The notes below the pieces were generated by a model. The model was given only the letters and a program-made list of their open reading frames with translations, made no database searches and was not told the origin of the DNA. Positions 4,063-54,230 of a stretch of DNA of 64,000 nt are shown here, piece after piece (positions within the stretch are counted from its first letter, which is position 1; each line of letters begins with the position of its first letter). The translations under genes and the position numbers were made by a program. Source of the DNA: Bacteroidetes bacterium GWA2_32_17 (lineage in GTDB: Bacteria; Bacteroidota; Bacteroidia; Bacteroidales; GWA2-32-17); NCBI GenBank assembly GCA_001769035.1, contig MENF01000106.1, positions 17-64,016 of the forward strand, read 5' to 3'.

Positions 4063-4119
4063 AAAACAAAATTTTGAATTAATAAGTAAATATTATATTT
4101 TCACGCCAAAAGCAAAAAA

Positions 4120-6797: not shown

Positions 6798-9700
6798 ATG
6801 AGCGAAAGAATACTAAAAGCTTTAATGCAATTATTTGCAATTATTGCCCGACCTGAAAGTAATGCAGAAGAAAGAAGGTCGGTTGTTGGCTCATTTCTAT
6901 TGCAACAACTTAATAGTGAACTTGTAAACGAATATTTAAAAGTATTTAATAATTACTACGAACAATATCAGGCAAAGCAATCAGATTCAACACTACGTAA
7001 AAAACGAATTGCAGGCAGCTCTGTAAAAGTTTTAAAAATTTGCACAGAAATTAATGAGGAGCTTACACAAAAACAGAAAGTTATTGTGCTTGTTCGATTA
7101 CTCGAATTTATTAAATCAGATTCGGTCGAAATTTCGGAACAGGAATTAGAATTTGTTGAAACTGTTGCCGACACTTTCCATATTGTTTCAGAAGAATATG
7201 TCAGGCTAAAAGCCTTTGTTTTATATACTTTCGACGAAATACCCAATTCAACGCGCATGCTTTTGGTTGACAGTAATGATAATTTTAGCCATCCTAAAGT
7301 AAAACATTTATACCGCCCTAATCTTCAGGGACAATTACGTGTTTTTCATGTACGAATGGCAAACATGTTTTTATTGAAGTATTTGGGCGAGAGGGAGTTG
7401 TATTTAAACGGACAACTTATTCATCTTCATAAAGTTTACGTTTTAAGTAATGGAAGTTCAATACGTTCAGCAAAAATAGCACCTATATATTATTCCGATA
7501 TTCTTAGCGTTTTTAACGAAGATAAAATTAAATCAAAAATTGTTTTTGAAGCTAAAGAAGTTGAGTTTGCATTTAAAGGCGGTGGAATTGGATTACATAA
7601 AATGAGTTTTAAGGAAGAATCGGGACATTTAGTTGGAATAATGGGTGCTAGCGGTGCTGGAAAAACAACTTTACTTAATGTTTTAAATGGTTCTTACGAA
7701 CCAACTAATGGCGAAATAACAATAAATGACATAAACATTTATTCGGAAAATAAAGAAATTGAAGGGCTTATCGGCTATGTTTCGCAAGATGACCTTTTAA
7801 TTGAAGACCTTACTGTATTTCAAAATCTTTATTATAATGCTAAATTATGCTTTGATAATCTTAACCATTTTCAGATTTTGAGAATTGTTATGAAAACGTT
7901 GCAAAATTTAGGTCTCTATAAAATAAAAGACATGAAAGTTGGTACTCCTCTTAACAAAAAAATTAGTGGGGGTCAGCGTAAACGCTTAAATATTGCACTT
8001 GAACTAATTAGAGAACCATCAATACTTTTCCTCGACGAACCAACTTCGGGTTTATCTTCAAGAGATTCTGAAAATATACTCGATTTACTTAAAGAATTAG
8101 CATTAAAAGGGAAATTAGTATTTGTTGTTATACATCAACCATCGTCAGATATTTTTAAAATGTTCGATAAACTATTGATACTTGATACTGGTGGATACCT
8201 TATATATGATGGAGACCCTGTTGACTCAATAATATACTTTAAATCTCGCACACATCAAGCAAACTGGAGCGAAAGCGAATGTCTTACCTGCGGTAATGTT
8301 AACCCCGAACAAATTTTCAATATTGTTGAAGCAAACGTACTTGATGAATATGGTAATCAAACTCATACACGAAAAATATCACCAATTGAATGGCTTCAAC
8401 GCTATGATAAACATCATATTACAACTAATGAAAACAACGACAAATCAAGTTATAAAATACCTGAAATATTTTTTAAAGTTCCTGGAAAAATAAAACAATT
8501 TAAAGTTTTTGTTATCCGTGATGTTCTTTCAAAAATTTCAAACTCACAGTATTTATTAATAAACTTATTAGAAGCACCGCTTTTATCTTTTATATTATCA
8601 TTTATAATAAGGTATTACAATGTTGATATTACAAACGATTCGGGATATACATTTAGCGAAAATTCTAATGTGCCAATATTCATGTTTATGTCAGTTATTA
8701 TCTCAATTTTTGTTGGGTTAACAGTGAGTGCCGAAGAAATTTTCAGAGACAGAAAAATTAGAAAGCGTGAAAAATATTTGAATTTAAGCTGGGGCAGTTA
8801 TTTATTTTCTAAAGTTTTTATTTTAACAATAATTTCGGCGATTCAAGCTGCATTATTTGTTGCAATCGGAAATTCAATATTAGAAATTCACGGTATGTAT
8901 TGGCAATATTGGTTAGTGCTTTTTAGCGCCTGGGTATTTTCTAACTTACTTGGACTCAATATCTCAGATGCTTTTAATTCAGCAGTAACAATATACATAT
9001 TAATACCTTTCCTTGTAATTCCTCAACTTATTTTGAGTGGTATAATAGTGAAGTTCGATAAACTTAATCCCGATGTTAGCAGCCCAAGTCATATTCCAAT
9101 ATACGGGCAGATTATTACTGCCCGGTGGGCTTATGAAGCCCTTGCAGTATATCAGTTCCGCGAGAACAAATATGAAAAGCAATTTTATCCTTACGAAAAA
9201 ATTACATGTTCGGCAAATTTCAAAAAAGACTTTTGGTTGCGTTCTCTTCGTAATAAAGTTGCCGATGTTAAGCGTGTATTAGGCATTAAAGAAAAACAAA
9301 AAGATGTAATTGATGATGCATTGTTATTATTACGCAATGAGTTATCGGTTGAAACAACATTAAATAAAAAAGTTGCATTTCCAGTAAAAATTAACGATTT
9401 AGTTTACAATAAAATAAACGACAAAACTTTAGATAAGCTAAGCCTGTATTTTGATGAATTAAATAAATATTATATTCAAAAATTTAATAAAGCCAGCGAA
9501 GCTAAAGATAGGATTTACAATAAGTTTCAAAAAAATGGAAAAGACAAACTAAAGTTTATTCAGCTTAAAAAAGATTATTATAACGAAAGTTTGAAAGAAT
9601 TTGTAAAGAATGAAAACGAAATGAATAAAATTGTAGAATATAATCACCATTTATATCAAAAAGCTGACCCTATATTTTACGACCCGCAAGGTGGTGTGCT

Positions 9701-11941: not shown

Positions 11942-12411
11942 TTGTTTATATTTTTAAGTTTATTGTTCTTTACGAAATACGAATTATACGAATGTACGAA
12001 TAAAATATTGTTTTATTGTTTAAAAAAGTTCAAAAAGTTCATTGTTCTACGTTCACTGCCGACTGCCTACTGTTTACTATTCACTGTTTATTGTTCATTG
12101 TTTATTGTTTATTGTTCACCGTTTCTACCAATCTTATCTTCCCAATCTTGTTTTCTCAATCTCACCCCTTAACCTCAACCTTAAAAATAATCATTCCCTT
12201 GTGTGTCTTTTTTTGTCGTGGATGTTTCATCTTTTTTATTTTACACGTTATTAAGTTCTATGTTCGTGGATATGTTAATAGAAGTCCCGCCTGAGCGGGA
12301 GAACTATAAACATAGAACCATTCACCCCGTAGGATAATCCTATTGAACAACGGAGTAAAAATAAAAACAAATATCCAACGGGGTAAACTTTTTATTAAAC
12401 TTCTCACTTTG

Positions 12412-14571
12412 TTATTCTTCATCTTTAGATTGTGCTTCGTATTCTTTTAGTAATTGAGTTTGAAGTTCGCCGGGAACCTGAGAATATTCGGCATATTTCA
12501 TTGTATAAATAGCTCTGCCGCTTGTAATTGAACTTAATGCAGTTGAATATTTACTCATTTCGGCTAAAGGAACTTTTGCTTTAATAACTTCGAAACCTTT
12601 TTCGCTGCTCATTCCTTGCACAATTGCTCTACGTGTTTGAAGGTCGCTCATAACATCACCCATTTTTTCGCTCGGTACCCAAACTTCAACATCATAAATT
12701 GGTTCGAGAATACGTGGACCTGCGTTTTTAAAAGCTTCTTTAAAAGCATTTCTTCCGGCTAAACGGAAAGATATTTCATTTGAATCAACCGGGTGCATTT
12801 TTCCATCATATACAGCAACCCTGATATCACGTGCATAAGAGCCGGTTAATGGACCTTCTTCCATTTTTTCCATTATACCTTTTAATATAGCAGGTAAAAA
12901 ACGAGCATCAATAGAACCACCAACAATACAATTCAAATAAATTAATTTTCCACCCCATGCTAATTCAACTTCTTCTTTACCACGAACAGAAATATTAATT
13001 TCTTTAGTGCCAAATTTATATTTTGTTGGATTTGGCATTCCTTCTGTGTAAGGTTCAACAACAATGTGCACTTCACCAAACTGACCGGCACCGCCACTTT
13101 GCTTTTTATGACGATAATCGGCTTGTGCCGATTTTGTTATAGTTTCACGATATGGAATTTTTGGAGCAACAAATTCTGTTGCGATTTTGTAAATATTATC
13201 TAAATGCCATTTTAAAATATTCAGATGGTACTCACCTTGCCCCGAAATAATTATTTGTTTTAATTCTTTTGAATATTCAATAAGTATTGTTGGGTCTTCG
13301 ATGTGCATTCTGTTTAATGCTTCGCCAAGTTTTTCATCATCATTCTCGCTTTGTGCTTTAATTGCAGTTCTGTAACGAGGATTTGAGAAATGAATTGGTT
13401 CTATTTGAACATCATTATTTGCTAAAGCTAATGTATGATTAAATTTTGTGTTTTTAAGTTTTACAGTAGCTCCAATATCGCCTGTACAAATTTTTTCGAT
13501 TTTATTTCGTGTTTTTCCGGCAACTACTAATAATTGAGAAATTCTTTCTTTAGTATTATTAAAATTATTTACTACGTCAGTATTTTCGGTAAGTGTTCCT
13601 GATATTACTTTAAAATAATTTATTTCGCCAATATGCTGTTCTATTGATGTTTTAAAAACAAATAGCACTAATGGAGCTTTTGGGTCAATTTTAATTTCAT
13701 TTCCTTCAATTGTTTTGGGAGATGTTACATCAATTGGAGATGGGCAACTTGTACCAATAAATTCCATTAACCTTGCAATTCCATAATTTTTTTTGGCTGA
13801 TGTGCAAAAAATCGGATATAATGAACGTTTTGCTATTCCAAGTTTTATTCCGCGTGCAATTTCAGCTTCTTCTAAAGTTCCTGTATCGAAAAATTTTTCC
13901 ATCAGCGATTCTTCGTTTTCGGCAGCAGCTTCAATTAGTTTGTTTTTTAATTCTTCGGCTTGTGCTATATGTTCAGCAGGTATATCTAAAAGTTCGGCTT
14001 TACCACTATCGCCCGAATATTTTAACATTTTCATTTTTAAAACATCAATCAGAGAATTAAATCCTGCTCCGGTTGCAACGGGAAACTGAACTAAAGTAGC
14101 TTTGTTTCCAAAAAACGATTTTATTCCTTCTACAGTTTGTTCGAAATTTGCTTTATCGTGGTCGAGTTGATTAATAACAAGAGTTAAAGGTTTCGCCATA
14201 TTTTCGACATAACGTGATTGTATTTGAGTCCCAACTTCAATACCATTTTGTGCATTTATTGACATTACAGCCATATCGGCAACTTTAAAAGACGAGAAAA
14301 TTGCGTTATTAAAATCGTCGAAGCCAGGTGTATCTAAAATATTTATTTTTTTATCGAGATATTCTGTTTGAAGTAGTGAAGAAAAAATTGAACATCCATT
14401 ATTTTGTTCAATATCCGAATAATCGGAAACTGTATTTTTGTTTCCTACATCACCTTTGCGGGTTATTGTTCCACCTTCAAAAAGCATTGCTTCGCCAATG
14501 GTTGTTTTACCCGATGATGAATTACCAATTAAAACTATATTACGGATTTGCTCGGTTTGATATACTTTCAT
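12412..14571 (-). CDS. Elongation factor G family GTPase (EF-G paralog)
   Basis: G1 GNSSSGKTT, G3 DTPGFDDF, five-domain length (719 aa). Confidence 0.85.
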   Translation of the reverse strand: MKVYQTEQIRNIVLIGNSSSGKTTIGEAMLFEGGTITRKGDVGNKNTVSDYSDIEQNNGCSIFSSLLQTEYLDKKINILDTPGFDDFNNAIFSSFKVADMAVMSINAQNGIEVGTQIQSRYVENMAKPLTLVINQLDHDKANFEQTVEGIKSFFGNKATLVQFPVATGAGFNSLIDVLKMKMLKYSGDSGKAELLDIPAEHIAQAEELKNKLIEAAAENEESLMEKFFDTGTLEEAEIARGIKLGIAKRSLYPIFCTSAKKNYGIARLMEFIGTSCPSPIDVTSPKTIEGNEIKIDPKAPLVLFVFKTSIEQHIGEINYFKVISGTLTENTDVVNNFNNTKERISQLLVVAGKTRNKIEKICTGDIGATVKLKNTKFNHTLALANNDVQIEPIHFSNPRYRTAIKAQSENDDEKLGEALNRMHIEDPTILIEYSKELKQIIISGQGEYHLNILKWHLDNIYKIATEFVAPKIPYRETITKSAQADYRHKKQSGGAGQFGEVHIVVEPYTEGMPNPTKYKFGTKEINISVRGKEEVELAWGGKLIYLNCIVGGSIDARFLPAILKGIMEKMEEGPLTGSYARDIRVAVYDGKMHPVDSNEISFRLAGRNAFKEAFKNAGPRILEPIYDVEVWVPSEKMGDVMSDLQTRRAIVQGMSSEKGFEVIKAKVPLAEMSKYSTALSSITSGRAIYTMKYAEYSQVPGELQTQLLKEYEAQSKDEE

Positions 14572-14966: not shown

Positions 14967-15208
14967 TAATCATGCGAATTAAGGGTTGAATTTTTTTTTC
15001 GTTCCGTTAGGAACGGTATATTGGTAGAAAATATAATTTAATCCAAATTATAGTTCCGTAGGAACGAAATAATTTAAAATATATCATACCTACGGCATTT
15101 GTATGGAGGATGTTATTTGTTTCTACCAATATGTTGTCCCTACGGGACTTTTAGATTCTATCCCGAAGTTTCGTAGCTACCGGTTTTAACCCTTAATTCG
15201 CATTAATC
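14967..15208. repeat. MITE-like element with ~20-bp terminal inverted repeats and nested hairpins
   Basis: gcgaattaagggtt (14974-14987) against aacccttaattcgc (15188-15201). Internal ttggtagaaa/tttctaccaa plus three 5-bp hairpins. Confidence 0.5.
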
Positions 15209-15591
15209 ATTATTGATTATAAAAAAACACCGAATAACTGCCTGTCCCGCCAAAGCGGGAAACATTGAACATCGAATGATGAAGTAAAAAACCCGCTATG
15301 ATGTTAAACAAGAAAATTTCAACTCAAAATATTTTATAGTTGAAGAATGGAATGGTTCGTGGAGACACGAACCAAGGAGTGAATAATTCAGGATTACAAA
15401 TCCTGAATAGCGGGGATATCTACGATTGAAAGGTTACAGCAATTAAAATATCGTGCTTCAAATGAATAACCCCGACATTTATGTCGGGGGTTTGAATGCT
15501 TCGTCTGATACGAGCTTTAGCCCTGATATTCAATCCTTAACTTGACACTCATGCGAAGTTTCGGGAACTTCGGGTTAGATTTGTTATCCGT

Positions 15592-15708
15592 GTTAAGTTG
15601 CTTATACCGATTTAATGTTGGATTTGGCAGGCTTTTACTTGCAGTCATTGTCAAACCACTAAAATGATTGATATTTGTTATTCGTGTCAAGTTGCCCATA
15701 ACAGTGTG
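15592..15708 (-). repeat. attC-like element, degenerate copy (deletion relative to 18094-18227)
   Basis: Aligns to 18107-18227 but lacks about 20 nt, including the inverse-core region. Abuts the stop codon at 15709. Confidence 0.4.
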
Positions 15709-17133
15709 TCAATTACCTATGATTACTAATTTGTCTACTGATAATATTTTATTACCTTCTGTTAAACGATAAAAATACAGTCCGCTTGGAAGATTGTCCC
15801 GGAACAGAGTTATTGTCTGCCCCGTAATATTTTTAATTTTCTTTACTGACTGCCCAAAACAGTTATACACGGTGAAAGTGGCGTTCTTTAAAAGATTGTC
15901 TGTCCGCAAAACTGTTTGCGTATAGAAAGGATTGGGAGAAATAGTAAAATGATTTTCTATTTTATCCTCATTAATGTCTGTGAGAAGTCCTAATTTAAAA
16001 GCAGTGCCCAGAATATTTAAGCCATCGCCATAACTTGCCAATCCATAAAGAAAATTGCCATCAGAAATAAGAGAACCTATAGGACTGCCTCCATCTGTGT
16101 TACTGTTGAAATCATACATCTTTGAAAAAACATTTCCATCGGTTTTTATTTTAAAGATTGTTCCTGCTCCGTTATTAATTCCACCACTCATAGTAGTCCC
16201 ATATAAATAAGTTCCATCAGAAATAAGAGAACCATATGGATATGCTCCATCTGAATAGCCCATGTTAAAAATGATTGAATATCCTGTACCATCTCGTTTT
16301 ATTCTAAAAATTGCTCCAGAATTATTTTGACCTCCAGCGATTGTCGTTCCATAGAGAAAAATGCTGTCAGTAATAAGTGACCCTAGAGGATTATGTGCGT
16401 CAGTAACAGATGCAAAATCGTATAGTTTAGAATATCCAGTCCCATCAGTAGCTATTTTAAAGATTACTCCGTACAAGGATGCACCTCCAGTATATGTAAG
16501 TCCATATAAAGAGTCGCCATCAAGTAGAAGGTCTCCATGAGGATTCGCTCCTAAAACTTGATTGAAATTATTCAAAACAGAATATCCTGTTCCGTCAAGA
16601 TTTATCTTAAAAATTACTCCATTATTGTTCGTGCCACCGTTCGCTGTCATACCAAAGAGAAAATTACCATCAGAAATAAGAGAACCATGAGGATTTAACC
16701 CAATTAGTCCTGAGAAATTAAATAAAACTGTATCCCCAGTTCCATCTGGTTTTATTTTAAAAATAACCCCTCCATTATTTGTGCCACCGTTTTCTGTCAT
16801 TCCGTAAAGAAAAGTTCCATCGTAAAAAAGAGAACCGTCAGGATTACTTCCATTTGTTGCACCCGCAAAATCTAAAAGTTTAACATATCCACTACCATCT
16901 GTTTTAATTTTAAAGATAACTCCCTTGTTATTTGTTCCTCCTAAACTTGTCATTCCGTAAAGAAAGGTTCCGTCAGAAACAAAAGAACCAGATGGAGATG
17001 CTCCGTTTGTACCAATAAAATCAAGAAGTTTAATAAACTGTGCGTTTGCTTCTGGAGCAACTATTAAGAAGAAAGCAACTGTCAAACCGAGAAATATTTT
17101 TTTCATACTGTCAAGATGTAAAGTTTGTGTCAT
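15709..17133 (-). CDS. GloVer-type tandem-repeat protein with a T9SS C-terminal sorting domain
   Basis: Repeats of GGTNNxGVIFKIxxDGTGY...L.F... and a C-terminal SPNPFYTQTV...GLYFYRL Por tail. Confidence 0.6.
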   Translation of the reverse strand: MTQTLHLDSMKKIFLGLTVAFFLIVAPEANAQFIKLLDFIGTNGASPSGSFVSDGTFLYGMTSLGGTNNKGVIFKIKTDGSGYVKLLDFAGATNGSNPDGSLFYDGTFLYGMTENGGTNNGGVIFKIKPDGTGDTVLFNFSGLIGLNPHGSLISDGNFLFGMTANGGTNNNGVIFKINLDGTGYSVLNNFNQVLGANPHGDLLLDGDSLYGLTYTGGASLYGVIFKIATDGTGYSKLYDFASVTDAHNPLGSLITDSIFLYGTTIAGGQNNSGAIFRIKRDGTGYSIIFNMGYSDGAYPYGSLISDGTYLYGTTMSGGINNGAGTIFKIKTDGNVFSKMYDFNSNTDGGSPIGSLISDGNFLYGLASYGDGLNILGTAFKLGLLTDINEDKIENHFTISPNPFYTQTVLRTDNLLKNATFTVYNCFGQSVKKIKNITGQTITLFRDNLPSGLYFYRLTEGNKILSVDKLVIIGN

Positions 17134-17167
17134 GTGTTATATAGTTTTTTTTATTTTTGGCATTATT

Positions 17168-17297
17168 GCTAACGACCAAGGCTAAGTCTTGTGCGGGATT
17201 GCGTGTTGAGTTCCTATCCACAAGTAGAAAAGTTTGGGCGGCGCAATGTCCACCTAAACCTACTGAAACCCGCATAAGACCTAGCCTTTGTTAGCGG
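17168..17297 (-). repeat. attC-like imperfect palindrome
   Basis: gctaacGACCaaggctaagtcttgtgcggg pairs with cccgcataagacctagccttTgttagc. Unequal spacers imply bulged bases. Lies between stop 17325 and start 17133. Confidence 0.55.
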
Positions 17298-17324
17298 CAT
17301 GCCCTTCTGTAATTTACAATTTGT

Positions 17325-17834
17325 TCATACTGCATTCAATATTTCATTATGTGCTTTTCTTACAATTTTGTTATAGTCAAATTGAATTATTCTCACTTTC
17401 TCCAAGTCACCCTGTTTGTTATCAAATATATTTTTAATTGCGTCCAAAAGTTCTTTTTGTTTTCCTATTAAGTCTTTAAAATTTTTCTCGGCAAACTGGG
17501 CAAAGTTTTGAATATCCCAATCTAAATATTGAAGATTAGCAATGCTTGCATTAATAGTTTTAAGCAGTTCATCTTCTTTTTGCTTCGTTTCAGATTTGTT
17601 CTTATTCTTCATATTCTGCTCAAGTTGGGATAAAGAAGTTACGATAACAGAAACATTTTCATCAAACTTAATAGCTCGAATTAAAAATGTTTCAGCCCAA
17701 CGAACTTGCCACTCTTTTTCTTGTAATAGAAACTTTTTGTTTCTTTCAATACTTTTATTAATCAATATGCCCAAAATCAAAATAATTATGGGAGTCAAGC
17801 AAGATGCAATAAGTTTTAAAATTTCAATTGTCAT
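17325..17834 (-). CDS. Hypothetical membrane-anchored coiled-coil protein (cassette ORF)
   Basis: N-terminal TM helix LIASCLTPIIILILGILI, remainder helical and charged. Confidence 0.4.
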   Translation of the reverse strand: MTIEILKLIASCLTPIIILILGILINKSIERNKKFLLQEKEWQVRWAETFLIRAIKFDENVSVIVTSLSQLEQNMKNKNKSETKQKEDELLKTINASIANLQYLDWDIQNFAQFAEKNFKDLIGKQKELLDAIKNIFDNKQGDLEKVRIIQFDYNKIVRKAHNEILNAV

Positions 17835-17888
17835 TTTTTTGTCATTAAATTATTCGACTTTCAAATTATACGCTTTGTTATTTTAGGG

Positions 17889-18092
17889 TTCTGACTAACG
17901 TTTTTATAATTACCATTATATTAATTAGTTACAATTCCTAAATCTTCATTAGTTAATGCAAATTTATCGATTTGTTTTTTAATTCTTTTAACAATTCCGA
18001 GTTTTCTTTTTTGGTCTAAAAATAAATAATTAATTTGATATGTTGTATTTCGTTAGCTTATGAAGTCAATAGTTTTGGGTATAGGGGGGATT
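17889..18092 (-). repeat. Conserved ~200-bp cassette 5' leader, copy 1
   Basis: Near-identical to 19675-19871. Begins right after the G|TT core (minus strand AATCCCCCCTATACC...). Confidence 0.85.
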
Positions 18093-18093
18093 A

Positions 18094-18227
18094 CCGCTAA
18101 CGTTGTAATGTTGGATTTGGCGGGCATTTTCTTGCAGGATGTGCCAAACCGTTAAATGTTTTATAATTTGTTGTCATTGTCAAGTTGCCCATAACTGCCC
18201 AGTTTTTACCAAACGTGTGTTACCTGC
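18094..18227 (-). repeat. attC-like imperfect palindrome
   Basis: Starts 6 nt after the stop at 18234. Outer boxes on the minus strand are GCAGGTAAC...GTTAGCGG. Same family as 54096-54224 and 60003-60134. Confidence 0.55.
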
Positions 18228-18233
18228 TGTGCT

Positions 18234-19634
18234 TTATTTTTGTTCTAAGTTACTTGGAAATTCTTCTGCAATTATTTCGTCAATTGTTTTCTGCACACCC
18301 TGTTTTTTTAATATTTCAAGAATTGCCATTGTTTCTCTATACTCCATTGCTTCTGGTAGTTTAGTGAATTCTGTATTAAATCCTATATCTTTCACTCTTT
18401 GTTCTATTTCTTCAATTGTAACATTAAAAAACTCCTTACGATTGTTAAACATGTTTACTTTCTTTTCAGCAAATGCTTTGTGTAATTCATTTTCAAGTGT
18501 TGGTGCTTCTTCTGAAAACATCATTGCATGAATATCAAATTGAAATGGAACGGAAGCGTCACCTAATTCTTTTATTCTTTCAGTTGGTTCTAATCTACGA
18601 GTCATACCTATTTTGAAAACATTTTCACCAAATGATCCAATATTAGATATTACATAAACATGTCCACGCTTTGTCTGTTGTGCCATAGATATTGCTCTTT
18701 CTTTTTTCTCTTGAGCCTCTTTTAGTTCTTGTTCCAATTTGTCAATTTGAGCTTGAAGTTTTTCGTGTTTGTCGCCAGTAGTTAATTCAATTTCCTTTCG
18801 TGCTTTTTCTAATGCCTTTTGGTAAGTTGCTTCTTCTTTTTCAGCTTCCTTTTGTGCTTGTTCAAATTCTCTTCTTGCTTTCTCTTCTTCTCTTAATTCC
18901 TCTTGGGCTGCTCTTAAAACTTCTTTTTCTTGCTGCCTTTTTGATTGATATTCATATTCAAGAATTAATTCATTTCTTTTCAAATCAAGATATGGCCTAG
19001 TAATATATACATTAAATCCTTCACCTAACTTATTAATTGAAATAAATAATTTTTGCATTCGTTCTCTCATTTGATTAATGTTATTCCACTTTACTTTTGC
19101 AATTAAAACATCGCATTCTCCATTAAATGCTCTTAACATTAATTTTTTATATCTATTTACTACAGCTCTTCCTTTAGCTTCACTATCACCAACAGTCCAA
19201 TTAGTGTCACAAATTGCTGCTTGATCAGAACTAATCATAGTTTTTTGCAAGTCAATAACATGAGCTTGCTCATACCTGTATTGGTCAGAACGCTCAAAAT
19301 CATAAACAGGTTCATAAATACCATACTCAATTAAGTCAAGTTTACTTTCAAATAAACCTACCTCTTTTCTAAGTTTAGTATATGTTTCAAATGCATTTTG
19401 ATAGTCAGTCTTAATTTTATTGAAGTTGTCTTCAATTATTTTTATTTCTGAATACTTATTGTTTATTGTTGAATTAAGTTCGGTTTCCTTTGTTGAAATT
19501 AATTCTTGTAATTGATTATTTTTATTTACTATTTCGTTTTCAATATCAGATATTGGTTTGTAACGGTCAAGTTGTTTTTTGAGTTCGTTAATTTCTTCAA
19601 TTTCCTTTTTCTTTAAAAAGTCAAAAAGTCCCAT
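18234..19634 (-). CDS. DUF4041-like coiled-coil protein with a C-terminal T5orf172 (GIY-YIG-superfamily-like) domain
   Basis: C-terminal GHVYVISN...FKIGMTRRLEPTERIKELGDASVPFQFDIHAMMF...LENELHKAF...EFF matches the T5orf172 pattern from memory. Long E/K-rich coiled coil in the middle. Confidence 0.55.
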   Translation of the reverse strand: MGLFDFLKKKEIEEINELKKQLDRYKPISDIENEIVNKNNQLQELISTKETELNSTINNKYSEIKIIEDNFNKIKTDYQNAFETYTKLRKEVGLFESKLDLIEYGIYEPVYDFERSDQYRYEQAHVIDLQKTMISSDQAAICDTNWTVGDSEAKGRAVVNRYKKLMLRAFNGECDVLIAKVKWNNINQMRERMQKLFISINKLGEGFNVYITRPYLDLKRNELILEYEYQSKRQQEKEVLRAAQEELREEEKARREFEQAQKEAEKEEATYQKALEKARKEIELTTGDKHEKLQAQIDKLEQELKEAQEKKERAISMAQQTKRGHVYVISNIGSFGENVFKIGMTRRLEPTERIKELGDASVPFQFDIHAMMFSEEAPTLENELHKAFAEKKVNMFNNRKEFFNVTIEEIEQRVKDIGFNTEFTKLPEAMEYRETMAILEILKKQGVQKTIDEIIAEEFPSNLEQK

Positions 19635-19674
19635 ATTATGTTATTTTAGGTTGTAATTGTTTTTTTGTAAGCAT

Positions 19675-19871
19675 TCTGACTAACGTTTTTATAATTACCA
19701 GTAAATTAATTAGTTGCAATTCCTAAATCTTCATTAGTTAATGCAAATTTATCGATTTGTTTTTTAATTCTTTTAACAATTCCGAGTTTTCTTTTTTTAT
19801 CTAAAAATAAATAATTTGATATGTCGTATTTCGTTAGCTTAAGAAGTCAATGGCTCGGTATAGGGGGGATT
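19675..19871 (-). repeat. Conserved ~200-bp cassette 5' leader, copy 2
   Basis: Near-identical to 17889-18092. Confidence 0.85.
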
Positions 19872-20492
19872 GCAGGTAACAGTTCGCTATTCCCAACCAG
19901 TTGGGAGTATTTATATTATATCTGTAGTTAATAAATATTTGTAACATCCTTATTATCATTATTAAAATCGTTTTTAACCGTTTATCATCGTTTAACTTAT
20001 TTTCGATATTTTATATATTAAGAATGTTTTCAAAATTAAATTTGAACAAACAAATTTATAAATTATTTTTGAATAAATCAATAAAATTGATATTTATTTT
20101 TTAAAATAATTTATTATATTTGCGTCAATTTATTTTAATATTCTAACTAAAAATATTTAACCCCTCTTGAATTTTTTTTCCCGAAAAAATGGAATATTTT
20201 GAGATTTTTTTGAATTTGTAAAATACAACATCCACATTATCAATAATATATATTTTCTATATCGTTTGTAGTACCAGAAAATAACATTGTTATTTGGTAA
20301 TCCGAATTCCTATATTTATTTTGTCGCAAATTTTTTAAAATAAAATGCGGTGTAATGGACAAAATTAATGGTTTTTATTTTCCTCACTTTGTTGAACATT
20401 TGTTTTTGAGTATTCTTGCTTAGTAATGTGTAGGAAATAAGTTCCTACAAGGCGCATAAAAATTTTAAACCGCAGCATACTAAAGTATGTGA

Positions 20493-20732
20493 GGATTTAA
20501 AATCTTTTATAGCAACGCCGTAGGAGCTTATTTCATGCACATTGCTTACACGGTAGTTAATACAATCAGATACAAATTGAAAAAACATGGAATCCATCAC
20601 AACTGGCAAAATATAGTAAGAATAATGAATAGTCAAAAAGTCGGTACAAAAACCATGAACCAGCGTAACAATAAACAAAAGGGTATGCTTATTCCATCGG
20701 CTGGAGTTCAAGAAATTTACACATTTTTATAA
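20493..20732 (+). pseudogene. Probable C-terminal remnant of an IS transposase
   Basis: Open frame ...AYFMHIAYTVVNTIRYKLKKHGIHHNWQNIVRIMNSQKV... resembles the C-terminal helix region of IS4/IS1634-like transposases. There is no N-terminal part and it is flanked by hairpin repeats. Confidence 0.3.
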
Positions 20733-21031
20733 TTAAAAAACTTCATTTTTTATATTTATGACGAAGATTAACCAGAGCAAACGCATGAAATAAATATTTT
20801 TCTTTCACAGGTCGCCTCTATGAGGCTTAATTTGTCAGGAATGTTGTAATTTCTATAAACAGAACGTTCCTATCGGAACTGTAAATATACAAAAAATCCT
20901 TTAGGATTTAACTGTTTATAGAAATAATGAAATCACCTGAATTTTAGCTCCATCGGAGTGTCCTGACTTTTGTAAAAATTTTCATGCGTTTGCCATGGGA
21001 GGTTAACAAAACCAAAAAAAATCAAGCTTTA

Positions 21032-21703
21032 TCAAAACGCCCAACCCGCATTAAATCCTAATAAGATTTTTAATGGACTATATGGAAATAGCTCATAATC
21101 TTCTTTGCTCGCATAAGTTGATACATTATTAAAATGTTCGAGCCAAATATTATCTCTATATCCTATTCCTATATATGGGTCGAATGCTAAATTTTTGTTA
21201 ATAATTTGAAATCCAACTTTAAAACAATAATTAGTATATGTAATTAAAATATATTCATCTTGTAGAACATTCTTTTTATCAGTTATTTTAGCCCGTGAAT
21301 ATGAATATTGCAATGCCACATATAAACCTTTAGGAGCTTTAGTTTGTTCTTTGTTATTTAACAAATAATATTTATATTCGGCCTGAAATCTAAAGCCACG
21401 AACTTTTAACACAATAGGAGGAACAGCAGCTGATTCTATTAAAGTTGTAATCAACCCTTTTCCAAGGTAGGAACCAGAAATTTGAACAGAACTTCTTGTT
21501 GATAATACAGTTTCATAAGCCAACCGAAATTCAGAAGTTAAAGGAATAGAGCCAACAGGCATAACAAAAGGATTTGTTTTTAATATATTTCTTTTTGTTT
21601 CGATGCGGCTATAATAAACTGAATCCTGATAAAACTGACAATAAACAGCAATGCTCATCTGAAGAAATACTACAACTAATATGATTTGTTTAATTTTTAT
21701 CAT
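21032..21703 (-). CDS. Putative outer-membrane beta-barrel protein
   Basis: Signal peptide, alternating hydrophobic pattern, C-terminal ...GFNAGWAF aromatic end. Confidence 0.45.
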   Translation of the reverse strand: MIKIKQIILVVVFLQMSIAVYCQFYQDSVYYSRIETKRNILKTNPFVMPVGSIPLTSEFRLAYETVLSTRSSVQISGSYLGKGLITTLIESAAVPPIVLKVRGFRFQAEYKYYLLNNKEQTKAPKGLYVALQYSYSRAKITDKKNVLQDEYILITYTNYCFKVGFQIINKNLAFDPYIGIGYRDNIWLEHFNNVSTYASKEDYELFPYSPLKILLGFNAGWAF

Positions 21704-21718
21704 CTTTTAATATTTATT

Positions 21719-21757
21719 GGTTTCAAGTTTCAAGTTTCAAGTTTCAAGTTTCAAGAT
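21719..21757. repeat. Heptamer tandem repeat (gtttcaa) x5
   Basis: Read directly. Confidence 0.9.
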
Positions 21758-21990
21758 TGTTCAAAAGAGTTCAAAAAGTTTATTGTTCTATGTTATTTAG
21801 TTATTTGTTATTAAGTTATTTCAATATATTTCTATCAATTTCTATCAATTTCAATGTTTATCGTTCATTGTTTTTCGTTCACTGTTTAAAGAAAAGATGT
21901 TTCGCTAATCACTCAACATGACAAAAAGAACTTGTTCACTGCCAACTGTTTACTGTTTACTGTTCAAAAAAAACTCACTGTCATTCAATA

Positions 21991-22073
21991 GTCATACATA
22001 GTCATACAATTGTCAGCATTTGTAATGCAGTTAGAAAACAATTGTGTGACCATTGTATTAACTATTGTGTGAC
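21991..22073. repeat. 83-bp imperfect-palindrome unit, copy 2
   Basis: Near-identical to 1711-1793, in the same orientation. Confidence 0.9.
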
Positions 22074-22110
22074 CATTGTTATTATTGTTCACTGTTTGCA
22101 GGTTTTTCTT

Positions 22111-22390
22111 CAATCTTTTTTTATCAATCTTGTTTTATCAATCTATTCCTATCAATCTTTTCAATCTTGTTTTCTCAATCTTGTCTTCCCAATCTATTCA
22201 ATCTTGTCTTCCCAATCTATTCAATCTTGTCTTCTCAATCCTATCAATCATGTCTTCCCAATCTATTCAATCTTGTCTTCTCAATCCTATCAATCATGTC
22301 TTCCCAATCTTTCGTCAATCTTTTTTCTCAATCTTGTTTTGTCAATCTTGTTTTATCAATCCTTTCAATCTTGTCTTCTCAATCTTTCTC
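22111..22390. repeat. Array of ~23 CAATCT(T/A) motifs spaced 9 or 14 nt, with 23- and 46-bp higher-order repeats
   Basis: Read directly. Lies immediately 3' of the tsaD stop on the transcribed (minus) strand. Confidence 0.9.
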
Positions 22391-22395
22391 AAAAA

Positions 22396-23421
22396 TTATA
22401 ATTCAAATCGTGCAATTGGTGCAACATCGTGAGATGCAAAAAGATTTTGCTTAAATTTAAAATATCCTGCAACAGCAATCATAGCAGCATTATCGGTAGT
22501 AAAGTTAAATGAAGGAATGTGAATTTTCCAGTTATTTTTTAACGATAATTCTGTAAATTGTTTTCTAATTTCGGAATTTGCAGAAACACCACCGGACAAC
22601 GTAACTTCTTTTATTCCGGTAATTTTAACCGCTTTAATTATTTTATCAATTAAAATGTCAACAATAGTTTGTTGTAACGAAGCACACAAATTATTTTTTT
22701 GCTGCTCAATAAAATCAGGATTTATTGCAATATTATCGCGTATAAAATATAAAAAAGAAGTTTTTAAGCCACTGAAACTAAAATTCAATTCAGCTATTTT
22801 TGGTTTCGTAAACATAAATGACAGCGGATTTCCTTCTTCTGCAAGTTTATCAATTAATGGTCCACCCGGATACTCTAAACCAAGTACTTTAGCTCCTTTA
22901 TCGAAAGCTTCGCCAGCCGCATCGTCAATTGTAGTACCAATAACTTCCATTTTAAGTGGCGAATTTACTTTTATAATTTGCGTATGTCCCCCCGAAATTA
23001 ATAAACATAAATGAGGGAACAAAGGAACATCTTTGGGCTTATTGTGTTCAATTATAAAATGTGATAATACATGTCCCTGCAAATGATTAACATCAATTAA
23101 AGGAATATTTAGCGAAAGCGATAAACCTTTTGCGAACGAAGTTCCAACAAGTAACGAACCAAGCAAGCCAGGTCCACGAGTAAAACTTATTGCATCAATT
23201 TCGTTTTTGTTAATACCTGCTCTTTTAATTGCCTCGTCAACAACAGGAATAATATTCGATTGATGTGCCCGCGATGCCAGCTCAGGTACAACCCCGCCAT
23301 AAGCTTTATGCACATCCTGCCCTGCAATAACATTTGACAATAAAATGCCATCTCTAACAACAGCAGCCGAAGTATCGTCGCACGATGACTCAATTCCGAG
23401 TATTGTAGTAAACTTTGTCAA
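22396..23421 (-). CDS. tsaD: tRNA N6-adenosine threonylcarbamoyltransferase
   Basis: LGIESSCDDTSAAV, GGVVPELASRAH, SGGHT motifs. 341 aa. Confidence 0.9.
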   Translation of the reverse strand: MTKFTTILGIESSCDDTSAAVVRDGILLSNVIAGQDVHKAYGGVVPELASRAHQSNIIPVVDEAIKRAGINKNEIDAISFTRGPGLLGSLLVGTSFAKGLSLSLNIPLIDVNHLQGHVLSHFIIEHNKPKDVPLFPHLCLLISGGHTQIIKVNSPLKMEVIGTTIDDAAGEAFDKGAKVLGLEYPGGPLIDKLAEEGNPLSFMFTKPKIAELNFSFSGLKTSFLYFIRDNIAINPDFIEQQKNNLCASLQQTIVDILIDKIIKAVKITGIKEVTLSGGVSANSEIRKQFTELSLKNNWKIHIPSFNFTTDNAAMIAVAGYFKFKQNLFASHDVAPIARFEL

Positions 23422-26400: not shown

Positions 26401-27893
26401 AACCAATAGTTGAAGGCTTAATTAAAATACAAAAAGCATCGTTTTTAATTCAATATTTACAAACAAGATACAGTGTAACAACCGATGTTATTGTAAAACC
26501 CAATTCATTTAATTTTTCTGATGTTGCAATTTTCGATTCAGAAGGGAATAAAGCAACATTAAATGGTAACATATCACACAATAATTTTAATAATTTAAAA
26601 TTTGATTTAGGAATTGAGACTGATAAATTATTAATGCTGAACACTACCGAAAAAGATAATGAATTATTTTATGGTAAAGCATTCGCCTCGGGAGTAATAG
26701 ATTTAACCGGCACACCCGAAAATTTTAATATTGATGTAACCACAAAAACCGAAAAGAACACAAAAATATTTATCCCTTTATCATCAGGGAGCGAAGTTAA
26801 TCAACAAAATTTTATACATTTTATTAATAACACAAATGATACTGCTAAACAAGTTATAGAACAAAAAATTGACCTGTCGGGGATAAATATGAATTTTAAT
26901 TTTCAGGCAACACACGATGCTGAAGTACAAATAATTTTTGATTCAAAAGTTGGTGACATAATAAAAGGTAAAGGAAATGGTAATTTAAGATTAGAAATTA
27001 CACCTACCGGCGAATTTAAAATGTTTGGCGATTATACAATTGAAAGCGGTGATTATTTGTTTACATTGCAAAATGTTATTAATAAAAAATTTGATATTGT
27101 TAAAGGGGGTACAATAAGCTGGAACGGCGACCCATACATGGCAATTCTTGATATATCAGCAGTTTATAAGTTAAAAGCCAGTTTATATGATTTAATGTTA
27201 GATTCTGCATACAAGCAAAGAGTACCTGTTGAATGTGTTCTTAATATGAGTAACAATTTGCTAAAACCCGATTTTATTTTTAGTATAAAACTTCCCGAAG
27301 GAGACTCTAAACCAAATAATTTAATAAACAGTTTCTCAAACGAAGATTTAAACAAACAAATAATTTCGCTTTTAATACTTAACCGATTTGTAACACCTGA
27401 AATTTATCGCAACACTTTGCAAAGCACAGAAACAAAAGGTACAAATGCAGTTGGAATGAATTCTTCCGAATTACTTTCTAATCAATTAAGTCATTGGCTA
27501 TCACAAATATCAAAAGATTTTGATATTGGAGTTAATTATCGTCCCGGTGACGAGCTTACTCACAATGAAGTTGAACTTGCACTTAGCACTCAAATATTAA
27601 ATGATAGAGTTACACTTAATGGAAATGTTGGAGTTGGAGGGAATCAGGCAACTCAATCGAGCAATTTTGTTGGCGACTTTGAAGTTGATGTAAAAATTAA
27701 CAAATCGGGAAAGCTAATGGTAAAAGGATTTAATCGCTCCAATACCGATATTATAAACGATACAGCACCTTACACTCAAGGATTAGGTTTGTTTTACAGA
27801 GAAGATTTTGATTCCTTTGGTAAGCTATTGCAACAATATTGGAAATCAGTTTTTACCCGCAAACAAGAAGACAAAATAAAAGAAAATAAATAG
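23493..27893 (+). CDS. TamB-like translocation/assembly module protein (DUF490 C-terminus)
   Basis: 1466 aa. N-terminal anchor, long beta-rich repetitive body, and a conserved C-terminal region typical of TamB/AsmA-like proteins. Confidence 0.65.
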   Translation: MAFLRLLFISYIIFKSSFLQTIITQRIASYLSAQLKAEVSLTGVDISLFTSVILENVFVSDQKKDTLLFVKKLNVKIKDINFSNNFIDINKLQLNEPVVNLYLDSLHQMNYSFIIKALSNDSDTTSSLPWKFIIRGLEANNAKFSYKKFAHLAQNSGMNYSDIGISKINLSIKNITYNSDSLKFKIENISGIEKCGIAIGHFSADALIDTNGLFMQNVLITAATSRLAFNYLNFLMKSVDDLDDFENKVKIVADVKKSLIGFKDISYFSSWLWGIKEKIVFEGKIKGKISDFKAKNVKIEYLDNTFISGNFAITGLPNIEQTFMTLAFSELNTNASDLSKIPIYPFTSHNTMEIPIEVKRLGKIYYKGELTGFTGDFVAYGNLKTNIGNLKTDISLKQDVVSGYTKFKGNLASEKFDLGSIVNLKETVGKISLNAKVEGKYKGKKLFANIKGSINDIEFKQYTYKNLKVEGEFTENTFEGSLNINDVNLSMDFLGKIDFSKNIPVFDFTADISKLQLYKLNLVKYDSLLTLSFLLSARFSGNSLDNLLGKIELFNFNYKSSRINEHFGDISITSEKNSLGSNFQLNSNILNASLIGNVHFSNLLTSLNNAINSYVPSLKFIKETENNKVHNEENSFALSIDFYNTDSIFKEFVPKLNIEKNTKLNFNINSIKNTFDLSINNGNISYSGIKANNPEVKIYTENQKLNYLINIKKLELSENANMQNINIQGFTQNNEGEINLSWNNPDSAIYKGDISLLYKLNKINNKFFPSVLLEANPSMLVLSNAEWYVNDAKAEIFDSLINIEQLTINSDSQYVYVNGIISKNTSDTLTVLLNKLNLTNSNLFLKKYGLELNGLVSGNLYISGLLGKTKLLSNINIENFKINNEDIGNAHIISQWDNNSNNILISGSTNRGNIKTLDFNGKYYTNGNIDFDVALDKLKLNLAEPYINSIMSDIKGIAGGKLTIKGSTSKPIVEGLIKIQKASFLIQYLQTRYSVTTDVIVKPNSFNFSDVAIFDSEGNKATLNGNISHNNFNNLKFDLGIETDKLLMLNTTEKDNELFYGKAFASGVIDLTGTPENFNIDVTTKTEKNTKIFIPLSSGSEVNQQNFIHFINNTNDTAKQVIEQKIDLSGINMNFNFQATHDAEVQIIFDSKVGDIIKGKGNGNLRLEITPTGEFKMFGDYTIESGDYLFTLQNVINKKFDIVKGGTISWNGDPYMAILDISAVYKLKASLYDLMLDSAYKQRVPVECVLNMSNNLLKPDFIFSIKLPEGDSKPNNLINSFSNEDLNKQIISLLILNRFVTPEIYRNTLQSTETKGTNAVGMNSSELLSNQLSHWLSQISKDFDIGVNYRPGDELTHNEVELALSTQILNDRVTLNGNVGVGGNQATQSSNFVGDFEVDVKINKSGKLMVKGFNRSNTDIINDTAPYTQGLGLFYREDFDSFGKLLQQYWKSVFTRKQEDKIKENK

Positions 27894-28034
27894 TGTCTGT
27901 CCATAATGTCCGATTTCTGCGTTATTCTCGTATTAAAAAACAGTCATTTACTACAGTAAACTCCTGATTTTTTAATACTTCGAATGCCTTGAACTCGAAC
28001 ATTCTGAATCAGACACTGACTTTATAGACAAACC
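27894..28034 (+). mobile_element. MITE-like element (family with tgtctgtccataatgtc termini)
   Basis: TIR tgtctgtccataatgtc / gactttatagacaaacc. Flanked by TAAATA on both sides. Confidence 0.55.
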
Positions 28035-28405
28035 CTAAATAATATTGGCATTTTTCATACTATAGCTAACGTATTGCTTTATTGCTAAATTGCTTTACCC
28101 CGTTAGATATTTACAAATGGGGGAAATTTTTTGTTTAAATATCATTATCTAACGGGGTGAATTGTTAAGCTGATAAGTTACTAAATGGTTAATGTCCCCC
28201 TTTTTAAAGGGAGTGGGGCGATGAAAATAATGAAACAATAAAACAAAGAAGTTGCTAAATTGCTTTATTGCTAAATTTTATTTCATTGAATTTCATACAT
28301 TTGAATAAATTGTACATCAACATTCTTTTGTTAATAAAAATAAAATCATAAGAAATAACGTTAACACAACATAGCTAATTTAGCTGACTATTAAAATATA
28401 TTTAT

Positions 28406-30300: not shown

Positions 30301-30302
30301 TT

Positions 30303-30425
30303 AGTGTCGGTCCATAATGTCCGATTTTTTCGTTAGGCTTCGAACAAAACTATGGTACGGTTTAAAACCGTGCCATAGTTTGTTGAATGGCAAGCCTCAA
30401 ACTCGAAAATTATAAATCAGACACT
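30303..30425 (+). mobile_element. MITE-like element, short variant
   Basis: agtgtcggtccataatgtccga...aatcagacact, with an internal perfect hairpin ctatggtacggtttaaaaccgtgccatag. Confidence 0.5.
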
Positions 30426-32312: not shown

Positions 32313-32360
32313 ATTTAATTGATTTTGGTCGCTTCTTTACAATATTTTTGCCAAAATAAT

Positions 32361-32445
32361 TGTTTGTCCATAATGTCCGATTTTTTCGTTATGCTTCTAA
32401 CAAAACTATGGCACGGTTTTAAACCGTGCCATAGTTTGTTGAACT
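32361..32445 (+). mobile_element. MITE-like element, 5' partial copy
   Basis: tgtttgtccataatgtccgattttttcgttatgc plus the ctatggcacgg...ccgtgccatag hairpin. Confidence 0.45.
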
Positions 32446-34990: not shown

Positions 34991-35039
34991 TTTACAATTT
35001 TTAAAGTCGGAAAGTTAATAAATTTTTAAAAAATTAATA

Positions 35040-53023: not shown

Positions 53024-53160
53024 AATAATCTTAAATCTGTTTTTGCAAATATATAAAGTTGAATAATAATAATACAATAATTTGCATAAATTTATTAACA
53101 TATAAACAATGTACGGGTTAATTGACAAAAAAGTAGGCTAAAAACTTTTGAACTACTTAG

Positions 53161-54224: not shown

Positions 54225-54230
54225 TTTAGG

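Follow-up and report, generated by a model that had tools for sequence, protein, structure and literature searches.

Gene content of the region between EF-G and tsaD

The stretch of DNA analysed here, referred to as the window, comprises 64,000 nucleotides (nt) of Bacteroidetes bacterium GWA2_32_17 (contig MENF01000106.1). It has a G+C content of 30%, and genes identical to those of the window were found on groundwater metagenome contigs, which makes the host an uncultured groundwater bacterium within the Bacteroidota. Between the gene for EF-G and tsaD lie three open reading frames (ORFs), all on the minus strand (ORF list and Pfam), each followed by a member of one family of sites of approximately 130 nt. 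The region very probably represents an orphan, i.e. recombinase-less, array of three gene cassettes of an integron-like capture system that appears to be widespread in the Bacteroidota. A cassette opens with a 9-nt core (GTTAnnnnn), carries one gene (occasionally two) and ends in a ~130-nt site. The first 9 nt of the site (R'', nnnnnTAAC) are complementary to the cassette's own core. The features of the region are listed below in the order of their coordinates.

12412-14571: EF-G gene, flank of the array region
15384-15591, minus strand: non-coding tail of the variable region, ending at the flank common to relatives
15592-15715, minus strand: site of cassette 3 (site 3), decayed; 5' arm lost, R'' degenerate, core mutated (GGTA)
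15709-17133, minus strand: ORF3, cargo of cassette 3; secreted, with 50-amino-acid (aa) repeats and a C-terminal sorting domain of the type IX secretion system (T9SS; Pfam Por_Secre_tail)
17165-17298, minus strand: site of cassette 2 (site 2), the sole intact hairpin of the array; R'' GCCGCTAAC, core GTTAGCAAT
17325-17834, minus strand: ORF2, cargo of cassette 2, 169 aa
17889-18092, minus strand: miniature element of the IS110 family of insertion sequences (IS), copy 2, in cassette 2
18093-18227, minus strand: site of cassette 1 (site 1); R'' end GCAGGTAAC, next core GTTAGCGGT; type-A 5' arm and type-B 3' arm
18234-19634, minus strand: ORF1, cargo of cassette 1; DUF4041 and T5orf172 nuclease domains (Pfam)
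19674-19871, minus strand: miniature IS110-family element, copy 1, directly after the 9-nt core of cassette 1
19872-19880, minus strand: core opening cassette 1, GTTACCTGC; exact reverse complement of 18219-18227; putative crossover point (G|TT)
19882-20712, minus strand: array head, AT-rich and non-coding; missing from the close relatives L113 and L120
22396-23421: tsaD, opposite flank of the array region

ORF1 corresponds to a full-length PD-Lambda-1 defence protein (PADLOC, E 3e-180), ORF2 gave no significant match in Pfam or PADLOC, and the internal repeats of ORF3 measure 150 nt each. The distance from stop codon to site is 6 nt for ORF1, 27 nt for ORF2 and 0 nt for ORF3. This agrees with the 0-27 nt given in an earlier, model-generated interpretation of the letters and their ORFs (hereafter the sequence-only reading), whose quoted strings and coordinates are all present in the DNA. 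Its domain assignments DUF4041/T5orf172 and T9SS were recovered with Pfam, while 'GloVer' for ORF3 and 'TM coiled-coil' (transmembrane coiled-coil) for ORF2 found no profile support. Rfam and tRNA scans of the window gave no match. Within the 64 kb of genome covered, sites of the family are confined to two accessory islands, at 15.4-20.7 kb and 53.5-61 kb. Metagenome contig L003 starts at window position 19880.

Complementarity of cassette starts and site starts

In cassette 1, the start GTTACCTGC (19880-19872) is complementary at 9/9 positions to the start of the cassette's own site, GCAGGTAAC (18227-18219). In cassette 2, GTTAGCGGT and the start of its own site, GCCGCTAAC, are complementary at 8/9 positions. 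The complementarity of unit boundaries that the sequence-only reading had pointed out was thus confirmed, and it recurs far beyond chance in related arrays. Since GTTA and TAAC are the only invariant parts of the family, it is the five variable positions that carry the match, and a full match at these is expected by chance about once in 1000 junctions. The sites combine AAC.../GTT... ends with a start complementary to their own cassette, as do those of integrons.

Chains of successive cassettes obeying this rule were searched for with 9-mers, and 110 block-shuffled sequences served as controls. The longest chains comprised ten cassettes in L044 (Prolixibacteraceae), five in L102 (Paludibacter sp.) and four in L046; chains of three each were found in L015, L048, L059 and L107. 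In the controls the longest chain was three, seen twice, and a chain of at least four never occurred. The corresponding 8-mer test was dropped as far too permissive (1281 chains in 40 shuffles).

Architecture and folding of the sites

Folded as DNA, site 2 (17168-17297) had z scores of -3.2 and -4.2 for its two strands, a fold equalled by 0/200 shuffles. It opens with R'' GCCGCTAAC, separated by 3 nt from a stem of 18 bp in which position 6 is a G.T and position 12 an A.C; a spacer of 6 nt then leads to the core GTTAGCAAT. The bulged pairing that had been described for it is correct. All three sites had been taken for imperfect palindromes, which does not apply to 18094-18227 and 15592-15708, where folding was no better than in shuffles (z = +1.1 to +1.8). 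Both are homologues of a family whose intact copies are hairpins, such as the third family copy at 54096-54223, which folds with z = -2.0 and -2.4. The fourth copy (60006-60131) reached 16/18 in an architecture scan, a value that is an architecture score and not a shuffle-controlled fold.

Among the intact copies of related contigs two arm types were distinguished. In type A the 5' arm CGTTTGGTAAAAACTGGGCA pairs with the 3' arm TGCCCAGCTTTTCCAAGCG, and in type B a 5' arm like ATGTTAGAATTTAGCGGGC pairs with GCCCGCCAAATCCAACAT. Site 1 (z = +1.1 and +1.8) is unable to fold because a type-A 5' arm is joined to a type-B 3' arm. Site 3 is 79% identical to site 1 over 99 nt; its 5' arm is lost, its R'' pairs at 1/9 positions with nothing beyond a possible ATTG, and its core reads GGTA, so that the last site is indeed decaying, as had been supposed.

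Sites of L102, L044, L107, L015 and the window have a common layout: a 9-nt end, a 3-nt spacer, a stem, a loop, the returning arm, a 6-nt spacer and the core. The shared stem of ~18 bp is irregular near positions 6-7 and 12, and the loop measures 50-80 nt. The irregularity is often an A.C in the coding strand and hence a G.T in the other strand. Compensatory changes were seen between sites (GTGTAT/ATACAC versus CGGTAT/ATACCG). Window site 2, 54096-54223 and 60006-60131 conform to this layout, with a length of ~125-140 nt and co-oriented ORFs upstream, and sites 1 and 3 are homologues with damaged arms.

When the whole window was scanned for this architecture, matches were obtained on the minus strand only. 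They comprised 17165-17292 and 60001-60129 with 16/18 each, 15006-15135 with 17 and one more borderline case; no match of at least 16 occurred in five shuffled windows. The palindrome at 15006-15135 has AAC...GTT ends and 17/18 stem pairs. It was rejected as a cassette site, being without relatives among the fetched loci and without end pairing.

The two strands were compared by predicted energies after each cassette's own core had been restored as in a circle. The bottom strand was predicted to be the more stable in 21/23 sites, by 3.2 kcal/mol on average. Window site 2 gave -30.9 kcal/mol (bottom) versus -29.5 kcal/mol (top), and window site 1 is one of the two sites without a more stable bottom strand.

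A second GTT motif resembling the core, CAGTTATGGGCAAC, is located in the loop of type-A and type-B sites (e.g. L015:8909 and 9003; window 15690s; L113 ~4795). Truncated sites at array ends break at or beside it, namely window site 3, the L113 array start and the L113 end (...GGCTG|TTCACTCC), which suggests that CAGTTATGGGCAAC is a secondary crossover point.

Cassette arrays in the same population and in other Bacteroidota

A 22-mer taken from the leader of cassettes 1 and 2 (described below) was used to scan metagenomes and returned 11 contigs from the same population. L017 and L015 overlap and together carry at least nine co-oriented cassettes, in which each ORF or ORF pair is followed by a site. 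Their cargo includes AbiJ, a T9SS beta-helix protein, a caspase-SpoIIE protein, AAA_21 with RloB, an arginine-deiminase-type enzyme and several small unknown proteins. In L016, HigB/HigA and two further cassettes are set between core genes; L013 codes for a Fic protein and others, and L020 for Shedu and a type III restriction system. In this population the cassettes are spread over a number of small arrays located at different places in the chromosome.

Exact complements of 9-10 nt occur in the same population (GTTATGGGC/GCCCATAAC, GTTATGGTGC/GCACCATAAC and GTTATAGCT/AGCTATAAC). The pair GTTAGGCAC/GTGCCTAAC joins them once a 450-nt miniature inverted-repeat transposable element (MITE; inverted ends GTCAGACTGTCTAAAAACC) lying between AAAC and GTTA is allowed for. 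A longer relative of this MITE, with a DUF772 transposase, is present in L022.

Larger arrays were found in a Prolixibacteraceae metagenome-assembled genome (MAG). There, 20 matches to one site half lie within 17 kb of L044, and six overlapping loci from two contigs contain 56 site matches. The L044 sites, of ~125 nt, are near-identical except for five variable bases at each end.

The second island of the window (53500-61000, minus strand) has two intact family sites. The one at 60006-60131 follows a Gp49/HTH toxin-antitoxin-like pair (60146-60782), and the one at 54096-54223 precedes an ORF of 165 aa (53539-54036). The interval between the two sites contains a type IIG restriction-modification gene (56892-59654), an ORF of 127 aa and a dCTP-deaminase-like gene (55442-56440). 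Cassette ends pair weakly in this island (7/9 for the toxin-antitoxin cassette).

A motif of ~58 nt, AAATGCTTATAAATGGTTGTAAACAATTAATGTCGGATAAGGTACACATAGCnAyTA, precedes first cassettes at window positions 59854-59914 and 60869-60929 (minus strand) and at L016 ~4540-4598. It ends exactly at the core GTTA, where homology ends as well, and its sequence is suggestive of an attI-type site that has no recombinase gene. In L090, L107 and L109, the sequence leading up to the first core behind the recombinase is similar to the last bases of the motif. Upstream of 19880 in the window the resemblance is limited to the last ~12 nt; the last bases of the array head, ATAGCGAACT beside the core GTTA, look like the end of the attI-like motif by resemblance only. 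A further likeness of the window array head to that of L016, indicated by a BLAST match, failed in alignment.

Cassette replacement between close relatives

Contigs for comparison were found via the representative ('Bacteroidetes bacterium CG02_land_8_20_14_3_00_31_25') of the 90%-identity cluster to which the window EF-G belongs. In these relatives the flanks are conserved at 91-98% identity, and the content between them differs. L113 and L120, which encode an EF-G of at least 90% identity (the cluster representative), share the 223-aa ORF (window 21032-21703), which is followed by a truncated site. Next come GTTAGGCAC, an MNT-HEPN pair and a site starting with GTGCCTAAC, and last a piece of the same miniature IS with a truncated 5' arm, after which the shared flank resumes at TTCACTCC (window 15383). 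On the other side homology ends at window position 20713. These limits place the variable region at 15384-20712, wider than the extent of 15592-19881 given by the sequence-only reading. In L114 a tRNA gene, and no cassette, lies upstream of that flank, and homology likewise resumes at window position 15383. The comparison of the tsaD side with the EF-G side, which had been suggested as a check, therefore shows that cassettes have been replaced between close relatives (L113, L120, L114) at this locus upstream of EF-G.

Two long palindromes are located at 15006-15135 (in an indel at 14974-15204) and 20849-20925 (in 20782-20997). The stretches holding them are absent from the otherwise collinear L113, L114 and L120 and hence represent insertions or deletions.

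A tyrosine recombinase linked to related arrays

Profile scans, an IntI1 probe and a search with the recombinase family described below detected no tyrosine recombinase or remnant in the window, including the surroundings of the array. The statement that none lies above 19900 thus proved right for the whole 64 kb. The IntI1 sequence, used only as a probe, had no match in the window or in the same-population contigs. The window array, lacking the Xer-like recombinase upstream of the first core, is an orphan member of the Bacteroidota integron-like arrays.

Such a recombinase is present at related arrays. In L090, from a Bacteroidales MAG, a recombinase of 461 aa is encoded at 3144-4529. The sequence GTTACCAAC, located 92 nt after it, is the start of a cassette whose site begins with GTTGGTAAC; the next unit reads GTTAGTGGC ... 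SieB ... GCCACTAAC. The same layout was found in L102 (a 3.4-Mb contig of Paludibacter sp.), L107, L109 and L110. In these five loci, with four distinct recombinases, the order is core gene, recombinase, first core 91-123 nt after the stop codon, and co-oriented cassettes. Their cargo in L102, L107, L109 and L110 includes GmrSD, a PD-(D/E)xK nuclease, AAA_13, a Dam/DpnII restriction system, Fic and a cytosine methylase.

Homologues of the recombinase are numerous, have 455-490 aa and are named only 'XerD' or 'site-specific integrase' in their sources. Pfam recognised the domains SAM_4 and Phage_integrase. In NCBIfam the C-terminal 265 aa best match archaeal XerA ('site-specific tyrosine recombinase/integron integrase') with 215-222 bits against a cut-off of 220; P0093 scored lower (183 bits). 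Scores with TIGR02249 were 199-214 (cut-off 265), with a match that spans the first 180 of 315 profile positions, and those with NF011946 were 124-140 (cut-off 435), so that all members of the family fail both integron-integrase models. Alignment to the IntI1 probe requires gaps of 27 and 16 residues exactly at the IntI insertion. The nearest solved structures, with equal scores, are XerA and V. cholerae IntI4, and the N-terminal ~180 aa had no profile match. Judged by these comparisons, the array-linked recombinase belongs to the Xer/IntI group and lacks the insertion of integron integrases.

Some recombinases were considered and discarded. Full-length matches to the IntI1 probe in the Prolixibacteraceae and partial ones in L069, L070 and L091 were rejected as the array recombinase. 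They are regarded as parts of IS because each is followed by an IS91-family transposase, an assignment confirmed by NCBIfam only for L046. P0093 and P0118, two AT-rich members of the array-linked family, were rejected as the cognate recombinase, both being from other samples.

The Prolixibacteraceae arrays contain a 2.4-kb unit (L046:3084-5467 and 7234-9617; also L048, L059 and L041) in which a tyrosine recombinase of 301 aa is accompanied, on the opposite strand, by an IS91-family transposase. Bounded by GTTGAACTA ... TAGTTCAAC, it recurs many times in the manner of a cassette.

An IS110-derived leader in cassettes 1 and 2

Approximately 200 nt are common to 17889-18092 and 19674-19871 (92% identity), and the homology ends exactly at the core. 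This insert after the core of both cassettes had escaped the sequence-only reading, which placed an IS remnant above 19900; none was found there, and the IS-derived sequence lies inside the cassettes. A full copy of the IS (~1.66 kb) occupies L022:745-2407, where a non-coding region of 270 nt is followed by a 453-aa transposase with PF01548 and PF02371 (DEDD). By the criteria of PMC11187229 it is of the IS110 type, since the long non-coding region precedes the transposase. What the window copies retain is ~40 nt from the start of the left end, together with the final 134 nt (97-99% identical), which include the last 35 transposase codons (97% identity). They are miniature, non-autonomous deletion derivatives of an IS110-family element. 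Earlier views of the leader as a small gene, a promoter module or an ORF-less cassette were dropped once the full IS had been found in L022. The exact leader 22-mer had no match in contigs of one genome per species, a set that hence does not include the source species.

A transposase scan of one genome per species yielded 79 loci across the Bacteroidota with 73-85% identity. Most of the 45 long loci among them have the left flank ...(A/C)CGTTAnnnnn|AATCC or a close variant and the right IS end ACGTTAGTCAGAA or a close variant. These conserved flanks show that insertion by this IS family is directed to the position 9 nt behind the core. By analogy, this targeting resembles that of IS1111 elements directed at attC. 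Elements of the IS110/IS1111 families target repetitive extragenic palindromic (REP) sequences as well as attC sites, and the IS1111-attC group and the IS110 type are guided by a seekRNA or bridge RNA (PMC11187229; for attC-targeting IS see Tetu and Holmes 2008 and Post and Hall 2009, as cited there). Like the IS1111-attC group, the element described here is an IS with a DEDD transposase that occupies one defined position, in one orientation, at the end of cassette recombination sites. It differs in that it is of the IS110 type while the known attC-targeting elements are of the IS1111 type, and in that the window has only 200-nt deletion derivatives.

A second site-specific parasite was encountered, an IS1182/IS5-like element (DUF772 transposase) together with its ~450-nt MITE (ends GTCAGACTGTCTAAAAACC), which inserts exactly between AAAC and GTTA of the core. 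Copies are present at L015:5303-5760, L012:11250-11957 and L022:1-744, in L078, L081 and L084, and in distant genera. The window has no copy of this element or of its MITE.

A working model for the array

The combined data are consistent with the following course of events. Excision of a cassette as a circle would bring both of its ends together, and the complement of the coding strand would then fold into a long imperfect hairpin. From its base up, this hairpin would consist of a 9-bp base, an asymmetric internal loop of 3/6 nt and a stem that is irregular at fixed positions. A tyrosine recombinase would cut and rejoin at G|TT, and insertion would take place at a site behind the recombinase gene. 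In related genomes the candidate enzyme has 455-490 aa, with ~180 extra aa at the N-terminus, and its gene lies immediately upstream of the array in the same orientation. As no recombinase gene is located nearby, any movement of the window array would have to be mediated in trans. At present the array is probably for the most part immobile, given the lack of a nearby recombinase, the non-folding hybrid site 1 and the decayed site 3. Possible origins are an insertion into a secondary GTT site, catalysed by a trans-acting recombinase, or a rearrangement; the same two routes have been proposed for attC-site clusters that have no integrase (CALINs; PMC8618304).

Several points weigh against reading the region as an orphan array of an integron-like system. 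Two of the three sites of the window array fail to fold, and several adjacent site pairs in L015 break the pairing rule. Near-identical L044 sites from one genome make up 10 of the 23 sites in the strand comparison. None of 120 members of the recombinase family found a counterpart in the window and 22 same-population contigs (best E-value 0.13), and a cognate recombinase in the source genome is thus an assumption. Finally, L009 was rejected as a rearranged variant of the array; it is probably an assembly chimera because its upstream part of 737 nt is identical to L012, with a join through a repeated IS remnant.

Evaluation of alternative explanations

The strongest competitor, which we nevertheless regard as improbable, is an ordinary CALIN, i.e. 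canonical attC sites moved by a classical IntI (with I2 helix) that is encoded elsewhere in the genome or has since been lost. The arrays share with integrons the AAC/GTT ends, an R''/R' pairing specific to each cassette, a single co-oriented ORF per cassette and a bottom strand that folds better. In purely descriptive terms a CALIN is a fitting label for the window array, whose three sites all fall in 2.7 kb of a 64-kb stretch that holds no integrase. Such clusters occur frequently, and it has been proposed that they are acted on in trans (PMC8618304; PMC9024848). In the searchable literature, complete integrons of the Bacteroidetes/Chlorobi group are reported only from Chlorobi, Ignavibacteriae and, in one case, Salinibacter. 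Otherwise the literature treats the Bacteroidota as nearly devoid of integrons, citing them as a clade in which none had been found (Darracq 2024, bioRxiv 10.1101/2024.07.02.601686).

The enzyme speaks against a CALIN: at 5/5 loci the recombinase at the array start is without the IntI insertion and below the curated cut-offs. The other recombinases detected with the IntI1 probe in 79 Bacteroidota loci are only partners of IS91 transposases. The sites point in the same direction. Classical attC sites have a 7-bp R box, spacers of 5/5-6 nt and extrahelical bases, and by-eye comparison with these figures indicates that the geometry found here differs: a 9-bp base, spacers of 3/6 nt, and irregularities near stem positions 7 and 12. 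Neither a canonical integron nor a CALIN in the strict sense is therefore supported, since the integrase, wherever it could be examined, was not of the integron type. Of the integrase-less cassette array proposed by the sequence-only reading, the array and the boundary rule stand; membership of the canonical integrons is not established, as the recombinase of relatives is without the IntI insertion.

Less probable still are REP- or MITE-like intergenic repeats or terminators that are IS110 targets by chance. The 'cassettes' would then be genes that happen to lie between repeats, and the variation would be due to homologous recombination. IS110/IS1111 elements do target REP sequences as well as attC (PMC11187229), other palindromes and MITEs occur in the intergenic DNA of this genome, and the hybrid site 1 looks like the product of homologous recombination between two sites. 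Such repeats would, however, not explain how a block of 5 nt covaries between the end of a site and the next start over 10 successive units. Moreover, homology between copies ends exactly at the core, and arrays begin at a fixed distance from a recombinase gene. The elements are found in co-oriented accessory and defence arrays and not behind core genes. Scattering of the palindromes behind core genes without complementarity, which the sequence-only reading had named as the outcome that would speak against an array, was not observed. In the 64-kb window, no scatter behind core genes without unit-specific pairing, as would be typical of REP sequences or bacterial interspersed mosaic elements, was detected, and the sites lie in arrays with boundary complementarity.

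That the RNA-guided IS110-family recombinase itself moves the cassettes is the least plausible explanation, and a very remote one. The IS and its miniature copies do sit exactly beside cassette cores in many genomes and the right IS end ACGTTAGTCAGAA mimics a core, but an IS end is lacking in most cassettes, no copy of the IS occurs in the recombinase-linked arrays of L102, L107 and L109, and the miniature copies have lost the non-coding region in which IS110-type elements encode the guide RNA (PMC11187229).

Comparison with known integron systems

An orphan array of an integron-like system thus remains the preferred reading of the region. Like integrons, the arrays consist of mostly single-gene, co-oriented cassettes with imperfect palindromic sites and AAC...GTT ends. 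Each site begins with a sequence that can pair with the opening bases of its own cassette; the bottom strand is predicted to fold better, and orphan arrays occur in both. They differ from integrons in the linked recombinase, which lacks the IntI insertion, has an extra N-terminal portion of ~180 aa and is co-oriented with and directly upstream of the cassettes. A further difference, again relative to the classical figures, lies in the sites, with a 9-bp base instead of 7 bp, spacers of 3/6 nt and fixed stem mismatches in place of extrahelical bases.

With the sedentary chromosomal integrons (Darracq 2024) the arrays share a cargo rich in defence and toxin-antitoxin genes and the occurrence of very large arrays of near-identical sites. 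Across the arrays this cargo comprises PD-Lambda-1, AbiJ, AAA_21 with RloB, a STAND NTPase, HigBA, MNT-HEPN, GmrSD, SieB, Shedu and restriction-modification genes. Host phylum and recombinase are different, and the cassettes of the window population are distributed over several small arrays at different sites.

The 'reverse' integrons known from Treponema and its relatives have an integrase that carries the IntI insertion and is encoded in the same orientation as the cassettes. As in these systems, the recombinase described here reads towards the array, and the first insertion site is located just after its 3' end; unlike theirs, it belongs to a family without the IntI insertion.

On a broader proposition our judgement is evenly divided. 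The Bacteroidota, and perhaps the Chlorobiota, may harbour a phylum-wide, hitherto undescribed counterpart of the integron, in which an I2-less, Xer-type recombinase captures and shuffles cassettes via folded ~130-nt sites. Arrays of well over 50 cassettes would serve as banks of anti-phage defence genes and would be parasitised by IS110-type elements, IS1182-like elements and units of IS91 with a recombinase. The window would then contain two orphan outposts of this system. No description of the Bacteroidota arrays or of their recombinase was retrieved from the searchable, open-access literature.

Integrons are the classic textbook example of gene capture. According to PMC7790495, they are considered to rely on a single innovation, the I2 helix of IntI, which enables a tyrosine recombinase to act on folded single strands. 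If the proposition is true, either the capture of cassettes has more than one origin or it can do without the I2 helix. A large untapped reservoir of cassettes with many defence genes would exist in a major phylum of environmental and gut bacteria, and current integron-finding software would miss a whole class of arrays. For the window alone the gain is smaller: a strain-variable locus upstream of EF-G is explained and its parts are annotated.

Other repeats in the window

Several repeats of other kinds were noted. MITE-like elements of ~190 nt with inverted ends TAGTGTCTGTCCATAATGTC are located at 27874-28050 and 53141-53340, with partial copies at 30285-30390 and 32341-32443. They lie just after core genes (those for TamB, an unannotated 252-aa ORF, GrpE and a DUF5606 protein) and are unrelated to the cassette sites. 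In the non-coding DNA of the array head, a nested palindrome of 125 nt (20422-20546) has outer arms of 27 nt that are 85% complementary and an inner pair of 24 nt. Intergenic tandem repeats with units of 7, 9, 11, 14 and 23 nt (TCAATCTTGT..., GTTTAGAGTTTCGGG..., ATTGTCATACG...) occupy 1594-1860, 12051-12160, 21703-22400 and 62248-62350. These tracts are common to several promoter-side regions, and metagenome assemblies break at the one adjacent to tsaD. An intergenic tandem duplication in perfect register, with units of 174 nt that are 98% identical, is present at 35037-35384.

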